Source: Planctomycetota bacterium
GTDB taxonomy: Bacteria; Planctomycetota; GCA-002687715; CAIWVZ01
Length of the DNA: 64,000 nucleotides
Assembly (NCBI GenBank): GCA_044222185.1
Contig: JBGANV010000001.1
Coordinates: 1,536,001-1,600,000 of the forward strand
Direction: 5' to 3'
Of the stretch, positions 43,372-50,439 are shown one piece after another. Below the pieces are notes generated by a model that was not told the DNA's origin, did not search any database, and was given only the letters and a program-made list of their open reading frames with translations. The translations under genes and the position numbers were made by a program. Each line of letters begins with the position of its first letter. The stretch's first letter is position 1.

Positions 43372-44715
43372 TCACGCCAACTCCGCGATGAAGCAGACCG
43401 ATGAGCATTCCGTCAACCGCACGGGGACGACCTGCCCGGTGAAGTCGCGACCGGCCTTGAAGTGAACGATGTGATTCTGGTGCGTCCGTCCCGTCCAACG
43501 ATCCGCGTCGTTCTTGCTCGGGCCTTCGACGAGGACGTCGACGACGTTGCCGAGGCGACGCTGGTTCTTCGCGAGCGTGAGGTCGCGCTGGATCTCGAGA
43601 AGGGTCGTGTTGCGCTGTTCCTTGACGTCGATGGGCACGTCGTCCGCCCATTCCGACGCGCGCGTCCCTTCGCGGGGTGAATAGCGGAATACGAAGCTCG
43701 ATTGGTAGTCGACCTCGCGCAGCAACGCGACGCTCTGATCGAATTCCGCGTCGGACTCGCCTGGGAAGCCGACGATCCAGTCGGTCGCGAGCGAGAGGTC
43801 CGGAACGTGGCGACGCATGCGCGCCACGGCGGCCCTGTACTCGTCGACCGTGTATCCGCGGTTCATGCGCCGCAGGACGGTGTCGCTCCCGGACTGGACC
43901 GGAAGGTGCAAGTAGCGGGAAACGCGCGGGTGATCGGCGATCGCTCGCGCGAGGTCCTCGGTCATGTGATTCGGGTGCGACGTGATGAACGTCAACCGAA
44001 CGAGTTCCGGCACCTGCTCGTGGATCTCGGAGAGGAGGCGCGCGAGCGTGACGCCGTCGCCGAGGTCCAATCCGTAGGTGTCGACGCGCTGTCCCAGCAA
44101 CGTCACCTCGATCACGCCGTCCTGGACCAGGCGCTTGATCTCGTCCAGGATGTCAGCGATCGGTCGACTCCGCTCGCGCCCCTGAGTGAACGGGACGATG
44201 CAGAAGGTGCAGAACTTGTTGCAGCCCCGCATCACGGTGACGAAGGCCTGGTGCTGCTTGGGACGGACCGAGATGTCGCGAGTGAAACTCAGCTCCTTCT
44301 CATCCACCGCGAGTACGCGTTGCCCGTGCTTCACTTCGTCCAGCAGGGCCACGACGTCCTCGAACCGGTAGGTGCCGACGACGAGGTCGACGTGGGGCGC
44401 CTTCTCGAAGATGAGGTCCTTGTGGTTTTGCGCCATGCAGCCCATGACACCGATGACGGTCGACGGACGCTCCTTCTTCAGCCGCTTCAGGGAGCCGAGC
44501 CGGGCGTACACCTTGTCCTCCGCGTGCTCGCGCACGCTGCAGGTGTAGTAGAGGATCACGTCGGCCTCGCCGGGGGCCGTGGCGCGGCGGAAGCCCGCTC
44601 CCTGAAGACGCCCCGTCACGAGCTCTGAATCCAGCCGGTTCATCTGGCACCCCATGTCCTCCAGGTAGAAGGACGGGGCTTGTTGCTGGCTCAAGTCGAA
44701 CTGCGATAACGCCAT
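43372..44715 (-). CDS. miaB: tRNA-i6A37 methylthiotransferase
   Basis: GCQMN, TCSVRE, GCMAQ, radical-SAM CNKFCTFC, HLPVQSG, TRAM domain. Confidence 0.95.
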   Translation of the reverse strand: MALSQFDLSQQQAPSFYLEDMGCQMNRLDSELVTGRLQGAGFRRATAPGEADVILYYTCSVREHAEDKVYARLGSLKRLKKERPSTVIGVMGCMAQNHKDLIFEKAPHVDLVVGTYRFEDVVALLDEVKHGQRVLAVDEKELSFTRDISVRPKQHQAFVTVMRGCNKFCTFCIVPFTQGRERSRPIADILDEIKRLVQDGVIEVTLLGQRVDTYGLDLGDGVTLARLLSEIHEQVPELVRLTFITSHPNHMTEDLARAIADHPRVSRYLHLPVQSGSDTVLRRMNRGYTVDEYRAAVARMRRHVPDLSLATDWIVGFPGESDAEFDQSVALLREVDYQSSFVFRYSPREGTRASEWADDVPIDVKEQRNTTLLEIQRDLTLAKNQRRLGNVVDVLVEGPSKNDADRWTGRTHQNHIVHFKAGRDFTGQVVPVRLTECSSVCFIAELA

Positions 44716-44754
44716 GGAGCGATTGTCACCGGGGTGAAGGCGCCGAAGCGCGCC

Positions 44755-44782
44755 ATGTTAGCGGCGGCCCCCGCACCGACAA
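44755..44782 (-). promoter_or_regulatory. Putative sigma70 promoter of miaB-ribD
   Basis: Minus strand TTGTCG-16 nt-TAACAT, 40 nt upstream of the miaB ATG. Confidence 0.4.
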
Positions 44783-44997
44783 GCGCGCGGACCAGGGCTC
44801 CGCCGGATGGCGCGGTTCCGTAAGCACAGCTTTACGCATGCAACGTCGCTTTGAGGGTTGGACCCCTCCGCGGCCATGGTGGAGCGGCTTCGCCGGCGGT
44901 TCCCACGTCCGCACGGACGGTCAGATCGCGGGCGGTTCACGCGAGATTCCCGCGCGTTCTTCATCGCGCTCGAAAAGCCGGCGCGACCGACACGCGG

Positions 44998-45013
44998 TGG
45001 CACACCCGTTGCA
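44998..45013 (+). promoter_or_regulatory. Sigma54 (RpoN) -24/-12 promoter
   Basis: TGGCAC-ACCCG-TTGCA matches TGGCAC-N5-TTGCW with exact spacing; intergenic and followed by a structured terminated unit. Confidence 0.75.
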
Positions 45014-45023
45014 ATACACCACA

Positions 45024-45179
45024 TGTCGCGGGCGACCACGGTCGCGCGCAACGAACGAACAACGAGTCGCCGCCTTCGGTGGCTCAAACAGTTTGGCTTC
45101 CGCGAGGAAGTCAAAGCAAGTGTTGGGTGATAGTTCCAAGAGTGAGCCGGTACTCGGAGTGCCGGCTTGCTCTTTTTTT
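45024..45179 (+). ncRNA. Candidate sigma54-dependent small RNA (~155 nt), family not recognised
   Basis: Hairpins at 45028-45049, 45064-45085 and 45092-45115 (GCGA GNRA loop) with A-rich linkers, ending in an intrinsic terminator. G-U wobbles are satisfied only on the + strand. Confidence 0.65.
45138..45179 (+). terminator. Rho-independent terminator
   Basis: 17-bp stem AAGAGTGAGCCGGTACT / AGTGCCGGCTTGCTCTT (3 G-U pairs) running into T7. Confidence 0.85.
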
Positions 45180-45480
45180 GTGCACCGAGCGCACGGTCCG
45201 TCGGCTGGAATTCCAGCCTCGATGGAGCACCGCCCGATTCGCCGAGGGACCTCGGCCCACCTTCCCGCGATCCCCCCGCGCACCGCATGGGCGCGACCGA
45301 GGGAAGCCGGGCACGTCGACGCGACGTCACTCTCGGCCGTGATTTCACGAGGTCGAGTCACGCAGCGGCCTGACGCGACGCTGTCTCCCTCCATGCGCCA
45401 CGCGGACCTGGCGTGACCTTGTGGACTGACCGTCAGTCCGCGGTCGCGCTCGGGGCGTGGTCGCGCGAAAGGAGACGCCC

Positions 45481-48400
45481 ATGAATCGCGTGATCGTGAT
45501 GTCCCTGGCGACGCTCGTCGTCGCAAGCTTCTCACCGGGTCAAGCGGCCCCCCTTCCTGAGACGCTCGTGTCGTACCCGCTTTGGACCGGAACCCTCCAG
45601 AACGTCGTGGACGAACCCATCGCCGCCTACTCGACGACGATCTTCGTGCCCGGGGCGTCCGCGCTCCAGGTCCACTTGGACGAGGTCACCCTCGCGACGG
45701 ACGAGGACGCCGTCGTGTTCCGAAGCCCCATCACGGGCGAAGTCCAACGGATGACACGCGGCGTTCTGAAGCAATGGAAGAACTCGTCGGCGTGGTTCCG
45801 GGGCGCGGCCGTCGAAATGACGGTGACCTTGGCGCCCACATCGGTAGCCGAAGTGTCGGTGGCATCCGTCAGCATCCTCCCCGGGATCACCGTCGACGGG
45901 ACATCCGGGGTCTGCGGCGCCGAGGACCGCGTGGCAAGTTCGTCGAACGCCATCTGCCGATTGCGTGGGAACGGCTTCCTCTGTTCGGGGTCGCTCGCCG
46001 ACAACGGAACCTACTGCGTGTCTGCCGGCCACTGCGTCTCCGACAGCGGCGGGCCGAGCTTCCCGGGCACGCTCGTGCTGGCCGAGTTCAACGTCCCATC
46101 GTCCACGTCATCCGGCACCCTCGTACCCGCGGCCGTTGCCGATCAATACCCGGTCGACGTCGGCTCGATCGACTTCGAGAACGGCGGCACCGGAGCGGAC
46201 TGGTCGGTCTTCCGCCTGCATCCGAACTCGAGCGGAGAGACGGCATTCGCCCGCCAGGGCGCGGCCTTCGGGCTCGCCAGCGCCCTCCCCTTCCCGCTCG
46301 CGACCGTGCGCATGCGCGGGTTCGGCCAGCACGACACCGTGCCGACGCTGAACCGTGCGCCACACACGGCCGCCGGGACGTTCGTCGGGGTCGTGTTCGA
46401 CCTCATCTCGCACCTCGTCGACCTCGACCACGGTGACTCCGGTGGACCGCTCACCGACGCCAACGGAGATCTGATCGGCGTCAACACGCACGCCGGGTGC
46501 AACCCCGTCGGCTCCAATGTCGCAACGAGCATCTTCCGACCTGCGTTCACTGCGGCCCGCAACGCGGCCCGGGCCTGCGGCACGACGACGCTCACGAACA
46601 GCAGCAGCGCGACGCAACTCTCGTGCGAGCCGCGGATCATCTCGATCACGCCCTCGACGACTGCGTGGAACATCGTCGCCGTCTCGGACGCGAACGACGA
46701 CTACGACATCCAGATCGACAACACGATCTCGTCCCAGAACGGAAGCGCCTGCGACTTCCTCGTCTCCGACGGCAACGCAACTCCGACGCCCGATCCCGTC
46801 AATGCGTTCGTGTTCGGAATTGGATCCGTCGGCTTCGGCGACGTCCAGTTCCGGACGGCATCCACCATGAACGTGGGCTCGCTCGCCACGATCGCCTGGG
46901 GCTCCAACCAGCTGGTCGAAATCCGCGAGTTCCTGGTCACGACGACCGACACGTACGACATCACGGTCGCCGGCGCCTCCGGCTTCAACTGGCGTGTCTA
47001 TCGCCCCAACGGCAGCTCGGCGTGGCGTACGCGCTCGAACGCCAACGTCAGCGGCGCCGTGAACGGTGGAACCCTGAACGGCGTCAGCCTCACGCCGGGC
47101 GTCCACGCTCTCGTGATCTTCAAGGACGGGAACCCGGGCGCTGCCAACCCCTCGACGTTCACGGCGATGGTGGCGCATTCGACGCCGAGCGTCGCACTTA
47201 CGACGACGACCACGACGGTGACGGCCGACGGTCAGCCGTTCACGGTCAGCCCCATCGCCGGCAACTGGACCGCAGTGTCGGCCTCCTCGCCCTCTGACTG
47301 GAACATCGCGATCGGAACCGCGTTCGACACGCAAGGCGGAACCATCAGCGCTTTCGTACTCGCCGACGGGCACGCAGGGACGATCACGCCGACGGAAGGC
47401 GTCCTCGATCACGTATCGGGCTCAGACCCGGCCGAAGCCCAGGTCGCAACGGGGACGACGATCTCCGTGAACGACACGTTCGCGACGTCGTTGAGCGCGG
47501 GCAGCGTGATCCGGATCTATCAGTTCAACGTGACGGTCGCAGGAAACTACGACGTCGGCGTGACGGGTGGCGACGGATCGACTGGCCTCAACTGGCGCGT
47601 GTATGCACCGGACGGCAGCAGCGACTGGCGCGGGCGTTCGACGTTCATCACCGGCGGCGACGTCGGTGGAACGATCGCGACCGGGCTGTCGCTGTCGACG
47701 GGTTGGCACGCGCTCGTGGTGTTCCGAGACGGTGGATCCGTCGCGACCGCCACGAGCTATCAAGTCCACGTCTACGCCGCCTCGGCCGTCGACGACCTCA
47801 CGCTCGGCGAGAACAACCTGGTGACCGCACAGAACCAGCTGTTCACCGTTCTGACCGGGCTCGGCCAATGGAACGCCGTCGGCGTGACGAGCACGGGGAC
47901 GACTGAGTGTGATGCCTACATCGGGACCGCGTCTTCGACGGCCTCCGGCGGGGGGAACACGGACTTCGTGCTCTCCAACGGGCACCTGGGCGCCACGCCC
48001 GGCTTCGTCGGGATCGTCACGCGTGACACGGGCACGGACGCCTACGACGTCGAGCGGGCGGCCGTCGCGACGATGGCGATCGGGACGACACTCAACTCGA
48101 CGTTCGCGTCCAACGGGGTCATCCGGCTGTTCGAGTTCCCGGTCACGGCGACGGGCTCGTTCGACGTGACGACCACGGGACTGTCGACGCTGGGATGGAG
48201 CATCTTCGCGCCCGGCTCGAGCGCAGCCTGGATCCGTCGCGCGGACGACGTCACTTCCGGAATCATCGGTGGCGGCGCCGGCATCCTGACGACGACGCAG
48301 ACCGGGACTCACGTGCTCGCCGTCTATCGCACAGGCGCGACGGGCTCCACGGCGGCGTTCTCCGTGACGATCACGCCGCGCAACCCGGTCCCGACCGTCT

Positions 48401-50439
48401 CGACCGTGAGCCCGTCCTCGATCCTGTCGGGGGCCAGCGCCTTCACGCTCACCGTCAACGGGACTGGATTCGTGAACGGGTCCGTCGTGAGGTGGAACGG
48501 AGTGGGCCTCGCCACGACGTTCGTCTCGGCGACCCAGCTCACGGCATCCGTTCCCGCGGCGAACGTCGCGACCGCGGGCACCGCCTCCGTCACGGCCTTC
48601 AACGCTGCACCCGGCGGAGGTACTTCGGGCCCGGTCGTCGTGACGATCAACAACCCCGTCCCGATCGTCGCGTCGCTCTCGCCCGCGTCGGCGACTGCCG
48701 GCGGCGCCGCGTTCACGCTCACCGTCAACGGGTCGTCGTTCCGGACGGGCGCCATCGTCCGATGGAACGGCGCGAACCGCGCGACGACCTTCGTCAGCGC
48801 GACGCAGCTGACGGCGTCGATCACCGCGGCGGACATCGCAACGGCCGGTTCGGCGTCGGTGACCGTGGTCAACGCGGCGCCGGGCGGTGGGACATCGGGA
48901 TCGCTGGCCTTCGCCGTGAACAACCCGTTGCCTGCACTCGCGGCGATCAGTCCCGCGTCCGCCACGTCGCTCGGCGCGGCGTTCACGCTGACTGCCACCG
49001 GGAGCAACTTTCGGAGCAACTCGATCGTGCGGTGGAATGGCGTCGACCTGGCGACGACCTTCGTGTCGGCAACGCAGCTCACGGCTGCCGTTCCCGCTGC
49101 GAACCTGACCGTCAACGGAACCGTGCCGGTCACCGTCTTCACACCGGCGCCAGGGGGCGGCACCACCGCCCCGCGGACGTTCACGATCAACGACCCGGTG
49201 CCGGCGATCTCCGCCATCAGCCCCACGAGCCGAACGGCTGGCGGCGCCGCGTTCACCCTGACCGTCACGGGTTCGAACTTCCGTTCGACGTCGTCGGTGC
49301 AGTGGAACGGAAGCGGCCGCACAACCACGTTCGTGAGCCCCACCCAGCTGACGGCCGCGATCCCGGCGTCGGACATCGCCACCGGCGGTTCCGCCTCCGT
49401 CACGGTCTCGAACCCGGTCCCCGGGGGTGGCACGTCGGGCGCGGCCACGCTCACGGTGAACAATCCGACCCCGGTGCTGGCCTCGGTGACCCCCGCGACG
49501 ATCTTGGCCGGGGCGCCCTCCGCGACGCTCACGTTGAACGGCTCCAACTTCAACGCGCAGTCGCAGGTCCGATGGAACGGGTCGGCGGCCGGCATCACGA
49601 CGCTCGTGGCGTCGGCGACGCAGCTGACGGCGACGATCCCCGGTTCACTCTTGAATGCCGTCGGTGCTGCGAGTGTGACGGTGTTCAACCCGGTGCCGAG
49701 TGGCGGCACGTCCGTCGCGCGCACCGTCACGACCGTGGGGCCGCGGCTGTTGGCGTTCTCCCCCACGTTCATCGCCGGACCGGTGACGGCAGGGAGCCCG
49801 CCGACGACCGTGACCTTCAGTCCCGTCGACGGCATCAGCGCCGCAGCGACGACGTTCTTCGTGAACGGTCATGCCGTGGCGGCCAACATGGTGGCAGCGC
49901 CGGTGGTCGTGACCATCACGATCCCGTCGACGATCGCCGAGATGCAGCGCCCCGGTGGGGTCACCATCACGGCGAGGAACTTCGGCACCTTCACGTCGAA
50001 TGCCGTCGCACTCGAGATCGGCGACCACAACAACCGCGGAACGATCGAGCAGAACCCGGTGGCGCCGGCGCCGGGTCAGAACTTCACGCTCATGGTGGAG
50101 GACTGTCTCCCGAACGTGCCGTTCATGTTGTTCGCGGATCCGGCGAACATCACGCCGCTCGTCGGGTTTCCTGACCCCGTGACCGACCTGGTCCTGGGCG
50201 TCAACCTGCTTCCGCAGACGACGATCCTCGACGGCATCGGGGTCTTCATGCCGGCGCAGGCGTTCGCGGTCTTCTCGCCTGATCCAGTGCTGCCGGGACG
50301 GGGGCGGTTCGCGCTGCCGGGCCTCGTTCAGCCCAATCCGCCGCTGAACGCCACGATCACCCTCCAGGTGATCTATCCGGATCCGTCGCTGCCCGCGGGG
50401 TTCCGCCTCACGCACGCGCGCGGGGGCTTCGACATGTGA
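45481..50439 (+). CDS. Large secreted modular trypsin-like (S1) serine protease with tandem repeats and IPT/TIG domains
   Basis: AAAGGAG RBS and signal peptide. Triad VSAGHC / ADWSVF / GDSGGP. Three ~200-aa repeats, five IPT/TIG-like repeats, C-terminal beta domain. Confidence 0.9.
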   Translation: MNRVIVMSLATLVVASFSPGQAAPLPETLVSYPLWTGTLQNVVDEPIAAYSTTIFVPGASALQVHLDEVTLATDEDAVVFRSPITGEVQRMTRGVLKQWKNSSAWFRGAAVEMTVTLAPTSVAEVSVASVSILPGITVDGTSGVCGAEDRVASSSNAICRLRGNGFLCSGSLADNGTYCVSAGHCVSDSGGPSFPGTLVLAEFNVPSSTSSGTLVPAAVADQYPVDVGSIDFENGGTGADWSVFRLHPNSSGETAFARQGAAFGLASALPFPLATVRMRGFGQHDTVPTLNRAPHTAAGTFVGVVFDLISHLVDLDHGDSGGPLTDANGDLIGVNTHAGCNPVGSNVATSIFRPAFTAARNAARACGTTTLTNSSSATQLSCEPRIISITPSTTAWNIVAVSDANDDYDIQIDNTISSQNGSACDFLVSDGNATPTPDPVNAFVFGIGSVGFGDVQFRTASTMNVGSLATIAWGSNQLVEIREFLVTTTDTYDITVAGASGFNWRVYRPNGSSAWRTRSNANVSGAVNGGTLNGVSLTPGVHALVIFKDGNPGAANPSTFTAMVAHSTPSVALTTTTTTVTADGQPFTVSPIAGNWTAVSASSPSDWNIAIGTAFDTQGGTISAFVLADGHAGTITPTEGVLDHVSGSDPAEAQVATGTTISVNDTFATSLSAGSVIRIYQFNVTVAGNYDVGVTGGDGSTGLNWRVYAPDGSSDWRGRSTFITGGDVGGTIATGLSLSTGWHALVVFRDGGSVATATSYQVHVYAASAVDDLTLGENNLVTAQNQLFTVLTGLGQWNAVGVTSTGTTECDAYIGTASSTASGGGNTDFVLSNGHLGATPGFVGIVTRDTGTDAYDVERAAVATMAIGTTLNSTFASNGVIRLFEFPVTATGSFDVTTTGLSTLGWSIFAPGSSAAWIRRADDVTSGIIGGGAGILTTTQTGTHVLAVYRTGATGSTAAFSVTITPRNPVPTVSTVSPSSILSGASAFTLTVNGTGFVNGSVVRWNGVGLATTFVSATQLTASVPAANVATAGTASVTAFNAAPGGGTSGPVVVTINNPVPIVASLSPASATAGGAAFTLTVNGSSFRTGAIVRWNGANRATTFVSATQLTASITAADIATAGSASVTVVNAAPGGGTSGSLAFAVNNPLPALAAISPASATSLGAAFTLTATGSNFRSNSIVRWNGVDLATTFVSATQLTAAVPAANLTVNGTVPVTVFTPAPGGGTTAPRTFTINDPVPAISAISPTSRTAGGAAFTLTVTGSNFRSTSSVQWNGSGRTTTFVSPTQLTAAIPASDIATGGSASVTVSNPVPGGGTSGAATLTVNNPTPVLASVTPATILAGAPSATLTLNGSNFNAQSQVRWNGSAAGITTLVASATQLTATIPGSLLNAVGAASVTVFNPVPSGGTSVARTVTTVGPRLLAFSPTFIAGPVTAGSPPTTVTFSPVDGISAAATTFFVNGHAVAANMVAAPVVVTITIPSTIAEMQRPGGVTITARNFGTFTSNAVALEIGDHNNRGTIEQNPVAPAPGQNFTLMVEDCLPNVPFMLFADPANITPLVGFPDPVTDLVLGVNLLPQTTILDGIGVFMPAQAFAVFSPDPVLPGRGRFALPGLVQPNPPLNATITLQVIYPDPSLPAGFRLTHARGGFDM
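46576..48381 (+). repeat. Three tandem ~200-aa (~600 bp) protein modules
   Basis: Recurring WxxV...F(L/V)(V/L)x(D/N)G...(E/Q)FxVTxxxx(Y/F)D(I/V)...Wx(V/I)(Y/F)xP..S..W..R...GxHxL pattern. Confidence 0.8.
48382..49737 (+). repeat. Five tandem ~90-aa IPT/TIG-like repeats
   Basis: Each follows (N/D)PxP...(S/T)P...TLTxxGxxF...VxWNG...TxxxSxTQLTA...PxGGT. Confidence 0.9.

Follow-up and report, generated by a model that had tools for sequence, protein, structure and literature searches.

Several described small RNAs (sRNAs) provide the frame in which the locus reported here is to be viewed. Qrr RNAs need Hfq; GlmY/GlmZ and CrcZ/CrcY act mainly by protein titration through repeated motifs; and RNAs of the GcvB type, which depend on sigma-70 and Hfq, possess a G/U-rich, unpaired and conserved region that pairs with C/A-rich mRNA sites, while GcvB is divergent from a conserved neighbour that is its own regulator. 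Concerning promoters and architecture, Qrr of Vibrio (activator LuxO; PMC10162802) is a stand-alone sigma-54 sRNA gene with an upstream activator dyad, a long invariant unpaired block and a terminator, and GlmY/GlmZ (activator GlrR) and CrcZ/CrcY (activator CbrB) are sigma-54-driven RNAs with upstream activator sites (PMC3045617, PMC6292655). Pxr of Myxococcus has a predicted sigma-54 promoter and several stem-loops, of which 1 and 2 form the conserved functional part, is lineage-restricted, lies between nla19 and an NADH dehydrogenase gene, and belongs to a host rich in sigma-54 activators and Ser/Thr kinases (PMC5568312).

In the literature searched we found no described regulatory sRNA of Planctomycetota, and the main text of a survey of sigma-54 regulons (PMC12316311) contains none of the terms 'small RNA', 'non-coding' or 'miaB'. 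The current study concerns a locus within a window of 64,000 nucleotides (the whole stretch of DNA analysed; positions 1,536,001 to 1,600,000 of contig JBGANV010000001.1) from a genome of an uncultured Planctomycetota lineage. A first-pass annotation, made from the letters of the sequence, had proposed a sigma-54-dependent sRNA unit at 44998-45179. Very probably, this unit represents a genuine gene, not described before, for a small regulatory RNA, equipped with a sigma-54 promoter of its own, and every element of the proposed layout (the promoter, three hairpins, a 22-nt unpaired stretch, a 17-bp terminator followed by seven T residues, and an intergenic gap of 765 bp that runs from the miaB start at 44715 to the next ATG at 45481) was located where the annotation had placed it. 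The features of the locus are the following.

43372..44715, minus strand: miaB, the divergent neighbour and synteny anchor (NCBIfam TIGR01574 equivalog)
44820..44835, no strand assigned: 16-bp dyad GTAAGCACAGCTTTAC, candidate enhancer (upstream activator site) at a distance of 179 bp from the -24 GG
44998..45013, plus strand: sigma-54 promoter TGGCAC-N5-TTGCA with -24 GG and -12 GC (window copy TGGCACacccgTTGCA), read directly from the sequence as TGGCAC at 44998-45003, five bases, and TTGCA at 45009-45013
45024..45179, plus strand: predicted transcript of approximately 156 nt, its start inferred from the promoter and its end from the terminator, with the z-score of the fold in support
45028..45049, plus strand: hairpin 1, lineage-specific, present in the minimum-energy fold and unalignable across the family
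45050..45063, plus strand: CA-rich linker AACGAACGAACAAC, unpaired in the fold
45064..45085, plus strand: hairpin 2, lineage-specific, present in the fold, conserved in neither position nor sequence
Between hairpins 2 and 3, plus strand: spacer AAACAG, from the sequence
45092..45115, plus strand: hairpin 3, conserved and immediately 5' of the core (helix 1 of covariance model R1)
45116..45137, plus strand: single-stranded G/U-rich block of 22 nt (GCAAGUGUUGGGUGAUAGUUCC / GCAAGTGTTGGGTGATAGTTCC), unpaired and invariant in the family
45117-45131, plus strand: core CAAGUGUUGGGUGAU inside the G/U-rich block, defined by identity across copies
45138..45179, plus strand: intrinsic terminator, composed of a stem of 17 bp, a loop of 3 nt and T7 (stem-loop at 45138-45174; helix 2 of R1)

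Two traits expected of a trans-acting sRNA are seen in the unit, namely a promoter and a terminator of its own, an intergenic position without being joined to a flanking gene, and a conserved unpaired block that constitutes the predicted seed. The likeness to Qrr extends to output, as the sRNA looks like a main product of its activator here, the composite enhancer-promoter pattern described below being nearly unique to the RNA locus. Unlike Qrr, however, the sRNA belongs to another phylum and has no match to any Rfam family, its candidate activator carries FHA and GAF domains in place of the receiver domain of LuxO, a gene for Hfq was not found, and there is one copy per genome, without pairing to the activator's own mRNA. 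From GlmY/GlmZ and CrcZ/CrcY it differs in its single invariant block and, again, in the lack of an Rfam match. The G/U-rich unpaired block and the divergent conserved neighbour are reminiscent of GcvB, although that neighbour is miaB, with which no pairing was seen. As regards Pxr (PMC5568312), the two RNAs have in common a predicted sigma-54 promoter, a fold of several stem-loops, lineage restriction and hosts with a wealth of sigma-54 activators and Ser/Thr kinases, whereas Pxr adjoins the presumed activator gene nla19 and conserves its stem-loops 1 and 2, and the present sRNA adjoins miaB in 20 of 22 loci, with the candidate activator encoded elsewhere, and conserves an unpaired block before the terminator; the two are set apart by synteny and published description. 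The family is one of undescribed, class-wide, sigma-54-dependent sRNAs of a kind that is itself already known.

Folding of the predicted RNA (45024-45179) on the plus strand yielded -76.6 kcal/mol (z = -5.90), a stability reached by none of 200 shuffled sequences, while the reverse strand yielded -53.7 kcal/mol (z = -1.91) and was equalled by 12 of 200 shuffles. Since the fold stands far above its shuffles on the plus strand only, the assignment of the unit to that strand in the first-pass annotation stands, as does its remark that the GC content falls below that of the flanks (0.52 over 45092-45178 versus 0.66 in the 3.2-kb locus). A single terminator-like site was detected, at 45138-45174, with 17 pairs (8 of them G-C) and a T run behind it; in several relatives the U tract behind the terminator stem is poor. 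No sigma-70-like promoter was identified in 44600-45600.

The sigma-54 promoter is borne out by comparison, a GG-N10-GC element close to TGGCAC-N5-TTGC being present upstream of the RNA at all 22 loci, which agrees with the expectation that the -24/-12 elements would be conserved. In an alignment of 15 sequences GG, A and TGC are the sole invariant letters of the region, while the search pattern for the promoter matched 25 times in 130,904 nt of loci (both strands). Two copies deserve qualification: one genome (G006) presents two overlapping promoter candidates, and in another (G007) the promoter lies far upstream and is less certain. The genome of the window encodes RpoN, as had been anticipated (397.7 bits against a cut-off of 277.35), as well as enhancer-binding proteins (14 Sigma54_activat matches of at least 217 bits), and across the class between 7 and 20 such activator genes are found per genome. 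We hold with high confidence that the locus is a genuine sigma-54-dependent RNA gene.

A DNA search of 60 relatives returned matches in 14, all from the window's own order, which is the sole order of its class. These matches centre on 24-28 nt that are 100% identical across genera, with unalignable flanks, and this stretch of full identity coincides exactly with the unpaired stretch which the first-pass annotation had singled out as a seed. An exact 20-mer scan of one genome per species (185,579 species) recovered ten stretches, nine labelled planctomycete and one "uncultured bacterium", all at loci that had already been found. Covariance model R1, which comprises hairpin 3, the core and the terminator and was initially built from four sequences, matched 22 of the 23 genomes of the order with 40-110 bits; G015, the only class genome without a match, is 90% complete and consists of 670 contigs. 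When 151 genomes sampled from the phylum were scanned, scores above 40 bits were confined to class members and matches outside the class reached at most 31.5 bits; the five best of the latter (L056-L060) proved to be plain terminators after coding regions, without the core. Weak matches of the model within the class (L051-L054) were likewise dismissed as ordinary terminators behind coding regions. The sRNA is single-copy in the window's genome, where blastn-short with the seed region revealed no second copy, and its length of approximately 156 nt compares with approximately 86-200 nt in relatives. Recurrence of the same arrangement in 21 other genomes argues that it is more than chance.

Synteny follows the same pattern, as miaB was found adjacent at 20 of the 22 loci, in accordance with the earlier suggestion that homologues would adjoin this gene. 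The window copy scores 442.3 bits against the NCBIfam TIGR01574 MiaB equivalog (cut-off 355.3), and a protein with UPF0004 and Radical_SAM domains is encoded divergently upstream of the RNA in the same 20 of 22 loci; in G020 a miaB neighbour is probable, N-terminal coding sequence being visible, and in G022 the neighbour is a different one. No RNA run was listed as containing the stretch; a run guessed to be RNA contributed one 416-nt contig on 44543-44787, which corresponds to the 5' end of a relative's miaB with 11 differences, and no contig on the sRNA.

Across the whole window, Rfam 15 (4227 models, a set that would include any curated sigma-54-dependent sRNA families) gave no match at gathering thresholds, which supports the novelty claimed for the unit. 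The best hit of a permissive search was narK RNA (RF03032) with 17 bits versus a threshold of 43.2 and an E-value of 1.3; it spans 44999-45070, mostly on the promoter, and its posterior is highest at GGCACA..TTGC, and as the alignment falls on these motifs, the 5' end of RF03032 itself looks like a sigma-54 promoter. The sRNA founds an RNA family of its own, for which Rfam has no match.

Covariation, which the first-pass annotation had named as a check on the stems, was borne out for hairpin 3 and the terminator. Standard pairs make up 98.0% of the 450 cells in the model alignment of 22 sequences, and two-sided changes occur in 20 of 23 pairs, hairpin 3 (helix 1 of R1) contributing 97.4% paired cells with two-sided change in 5 of 8 pairs and the terminator (helix 2) 98.3% with two-sided change in all 15. 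Column shuffles reached the observed value in none of 500 trials on four measures and in one of 500 on a fifth, while sliding the 3' partners by 1-3 columns reduced pairing to 42-60% of cells; since the alignment was fitted to the model, the slid-partner control is the fairer of the two. Covariation was also computed on an earlier version with 15 sequences. RNAalifold applied to a plain MAFFT alignment had returned 3 pairs only, because the stems were misaligned, and was replaced by the covariance-model alignment.

Within the G/U-rich block, CAAGTG and TGGGTGAT are identical in all 22 copies and the T between them is present in 21; in RNA form the core reads CAAGUGU-UGGGUGAU, with CAAGUG and UGGGUGAU in 22 of 22, and it is unpaired or mostly unpaired in the folds. 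The region 5' of hairpin 3 is, by comparison, variable (20-153 nt across the family), three genomes retain hairpin 3, core and terminator only, and the linker motif ACAACG occurs in 5 of 22 copies. Variable 5' parts, minimal copies and a rare linker motif together indicate that the working module consists of the hairpin, the invariant block and the terminator, and the other 5' elements of the window copy (hairpins 1 and 2, the linker rich in C and A) are lineage-specific extensions. The suggestion that an A-rich linker serves in protein binding found no support: besides the scarcity of ACAACG and the three copies without a linker, Hfq, CsrA and ProQ were not found, the profiles PF17209 (Hfq), PF04352 (ProQ) and PF02599 (CsrA) giving no match in the window's genome (G000, 93.79% complete).

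Upstream of the promoter, 19 of the 22 loci carry a 16-bp dyad with the pattern GT(C)AA-N6/7-TT(G)AC, situated 103-179 bp before the -24 GG and, in 17 of these 19, at -103 to -136. It is a rare element, with 2 further matches in 65,452 nt of loci and 5 in the whole 7.08-Mb genome. A composite pattern (GTAA-N8-TTAC, 85-115 nt, GGYAY-N5-YTGC) matched 11 times in 23 genomes as opposed to none for a reversed-pattern control; ten of the matches are RNA loci and the eleventh was located in G019, 38 nt past the stop codon of an activator gene. In the window's genome this activator (G000:C2:293643-295925) is a protein of 761 aa with FHA, GAF, Sigma54_activat, AAA-lid and HTH_8 domains that reaches no NCBIfam equivalog cut-off. 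One clear orthologue was detected in each of the 23 genomes (50-62% identity, 447-870 bits, where the lower scores stem from genes truncated at contig ends), and identity to the next paralogue does not exceed 46%. The activator gene forms part of a class-universal pair in which the gene for the FHA-GAF-AAA+-HTH activator is followed by one for an FHA-domain protein (G000:C2:292143-295925; orthologous loci L138-L159).

Of 21 assessable genomes, 13 have the dyad again behind the activator gene, 11-116 nt past its stop codon, and three more have it with one mismatch, as judged by eye. A promoter of the GGCAC-N5-TTTGC type follows the activator gene in 12 of 21 genomes, so that the adjacent FHA-domain gene has a sigma-54-like promoter of its own in these 12, and where both elements were found the distance from dyad to promoter is 88-129 nt. 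With 7-20 activators per genome, a presence-absence comparison cannot by itself single out the one that acts on the RNA. As a rare dyad is shared by the RNA loci and the 3' flank of this gene, however, the activator is likely to be the protein in question, and on the strength of this co-occurrence we consider it probable, though well short of certain, that the FHA-GAF-AAA+-HTH protein activates the sRNA. We infer that it would bind the dyad and switch on the RNA as well as the neighbouring FHA gene. The upstream dyad and the matching, predicted FHA-GAF protein fit the earlier proposal of activation by an enhancer-binding protein.

The most serious competitor to this assignment, which we regard as a distinct but minority possibility, accepts the sRNA as real and sigma-54-dependent while denying the dyad the role of enhancer or the FHA-GAF protein that of activator; the dyad, which sits between two divergent promoters, could serve another regulator, for instance of miaB, and the RNA could be driven by a different member of the set of 7-20 activators. 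Consistent with this reading, a dyad is lacking behind the FHA-GAF gene of the window's genome, and in the three genomes of one genus (g2) the dyad is missing both at the RNA locus and behind the activator gene although the sigma-54 promoter is kept. Furthermore, our examination covered one activator family, and others may also be class-universal. The dyad, however, accompanies the RNA even in G022, which has a neighbour other than miaB there, its distance from the GG is typical of enhancers at -103 to -136 in 17 of 19 loci, it again precedes a sigma-54 promoter by 88-129 bp behind the activator gene, and the composite pattern is almost unique to the RNA loci and the activator locus. The same three genomes of g2 are also the only ones in which the HTH of the activator reads ISRQTL, compared to ISRPTL in the other 18; this exchange and the dyad loss amount to a single evolutionary event and are accordingly taken as a hint only.

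With the FHA-GAF protein as the candidate activator, the computed family, structure, promoter, dyad and dyad-activator gene link may be joined into a mechanism in which the RNA would indeed be made under control of the class-universal FHA-GAF-AAA+-Fis-type HTH protein. The FHA domain suggests an input from Ser/Thr kinases by way of phosphothreonine. A phosphothreonine signal would accordingly be received by this domain, the activator, bound at the 16-bp dyad some 100-180 bp upstream, would switch on the sigma-54 promoter, and sigma-54 RNA polymerase would transcribe the stand-alone sRNA until its own intrinsic terminator ends the transcript. The invariant block CAAGUGU-UGGGUGAU would then act as a seed that pairs in trans with C/A-rich sites of several mRNAs, and would do so without Hfq, ProQ or CsrA. 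Base pairing in trans is the function that we deem the likelier one for the block, and the explanation as a whole (a stand-alone sigma-54 sRNA, the FHA-GAF activator acting via the dyad, and the invariant block as trans seed) is the one that we favour on balance.

As an alternative to a seed, the block might be a decoy that titrates a conserved RNA-binding protein in the manner of the Csr/Rsm RNAs, CrcZ and 6S RNA. Sixteen nucleotides held invariant class-wide exceed what most seeds require, no conserved mRNA target emerged from our screens, and, known chaperones not having been found, a partner protein of another kind is conceivable. Each RNA nevertheless carries a single copy of the motif, where known decoys carry repeated ones, and CsrA was not found in the window's genome; the block is moreover unpaired and immediately precedes the terminator, where seeds are usually situated, and one 18/22 collinear complement to it lies in an apparently co-regulated operon. 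We judge titration unlikely.

Targets for the presumed seed were sought with RNAduplex against 4,571 crude gene starts, which are imprecise because they derive from a GC3-based ORF caller, with three shuffled seeds and one reversed seed as controls. Duplexes of -20 kcal/mol or lower were predicted for 1,253 of the 4,571 genes compared to 546-2,149 for the four controls, i.e. without enrichment, and a blastn-short search of the genome with the seed region produced no complement longer than 13 nt, all E-values being above 9. Three leaders were rejected as targets, namely those of the activator gene (mean z-score -0.31, n = 18), of the FHA gene beside it (-0.12, n = 20) and of miaB (+0.23, n = 22). 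GGGUGAU can form only 7 bp with the 3' end of 16S rRNA in a pairing drawn by hand.

The collinear complement mentioned above, GGGAACGTCACCCAGAACTTGCG (L111:4175-4197; G000:C16:125674-125696), pairs with the seed at 18 of 22 positions by hand count, and its predicted duplex of -31.3 kcal/mol ranks third among the 4,571 genes. It is situated 20 nt past a gene for a di-haem cytochrome c peroxidase (PF03150) and 70 nt before a gene of 299 aa that has no Pfam or NCBIfam match. The peroxidase operon (G000:C16:124200-126662; L111 2701-5166) is preceded by the dyad GTCAAACGGCATTGAC, one of the five in the genome, and 170 nt past this dyad, ahead of the peroxidase gene, the motif CGGCAC-N5-TTGCT is present. 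A dyad and a seed complement, both rare, at one operon suggest a feed-forward loop. Neither was found, however, at 13 related peroxidase loci in ten other genomes, where the sole match to the promoter pattern sits inside the peroxidase gene; the arrangement being absent from relatives, the candidate target is lineage-specific at best, and the operon would at best be a recent recruit.

A third dyad, GTAAGCATTGCGTTAC, was noted at G000:C6:406535-409815 (L167 237-3519), where TGGCCC-N5-TTGCA follows 147 nt on and a protein of 1008 aa with a sub-threshold InhA-like MAM match (25.7 bits versus a cut-off of 26.9) is encoded downstream. This locus may be a further member of the regulon of the same activator. 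The 5' UTR of the gene, in which UCACCC..CAACA had been spotted by hand, ranked 4,215 of 4,571 and was discarded as a target of the seed.

It is tempting, albeit speculative, to go further and view the sRNA as the main output of an undescribed chain from phosphothreonine through the FHA-GAF protein to sigma-54, which would govern, without a chaperone and by means of a 16-nt seed, a class-wide regulon of several genes that here includes the co-activated peroxidase operon as a feed-forward loop; we consider this extended version doubtful. If true, this would to our knowledge, and within the literature searched, make it the phylum's first regulatory sRNA circuit to be defined. With the present finding the phylum gains a complete, testable and class-wide module composed of a predicted enhancer, a sigma-54 promoter, an sRNA and a named candidate activator. 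It would also offer a clean case for seed-based regulation without Hfq, in a host genome in which the standard sRNA partner proteins were not detected, and another for phosphothreonine signalling into sigma-54 promoters, while the covariance model may help to annotate members of the family in metagenomic data.

Turning from the seed to the transcription unit as such, the gene at 45457-50439 lies on the same strand as the sRNA and approximately 280 nt downstream, an arrangement which could be taken to mean that the element acts in cis, as a leader or attenuator of that gene or as an antisense to the transcript of a neighbour. This gene is not conserved at the locus in relatives, most of which instead carry downstream genes on the opposite strand, for an N_methyl protein and metK, that converge on the RNA gene; in these many loci the orientation of the downstream genes implies that the sigma-54 promoter serves the RNA alone. 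As a strong covarying terminator closes the unit in all 22 copies and the miaB leader is without complementarity to the RNA, a cis-acting element is highly improbable. Still less credible are a small protein, for which it may be said that two of the three frames, as read from the sequence, are open across the invariant block, though the block lacks third-position variation in 22 genomes, its flanks vary by paired substitutions and by indels that are not multiples of three and no conserved start codon was seen, and a functionless coincidence of a promoter-like site with a terminator, which is excluded by presence in 22 of 23 genomes with conserved synteny.

The stand-alone sRNA thus remains the preferred reading, and some further observations concern its surroundings. 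The downstream gene at 45457-50439 (plus strand; start at 45457 or 45481) encodes a protein of approximately 1650-1660 aa with weak matches to trypsin-like and TIG domains. On the other side, a sigma-70-like promoter of miaB, apparently conserved in the shared intergenic region, can be discerned at 44755-44782 in the minus-strand sense; in most of the 22 upstream regions it appears, by eye, as a -35 of the TTGAG/TTGTC type, a spacing of approximately 16-17 nt and a TAACAT/TAGAAT -10, the latter some 40 nt before the miaB start. Lastly, the loci of one family (f2: L013-L016, L031, L035, L036, L043 and L044) share a conserved A/T-rich box of the type CTTAGAGAATTT in the interval that separates the dyad from the sigma-54 promoter, some 20-45 nt ahead of the -24 GG, and this box could be a bending site of the IHF type.
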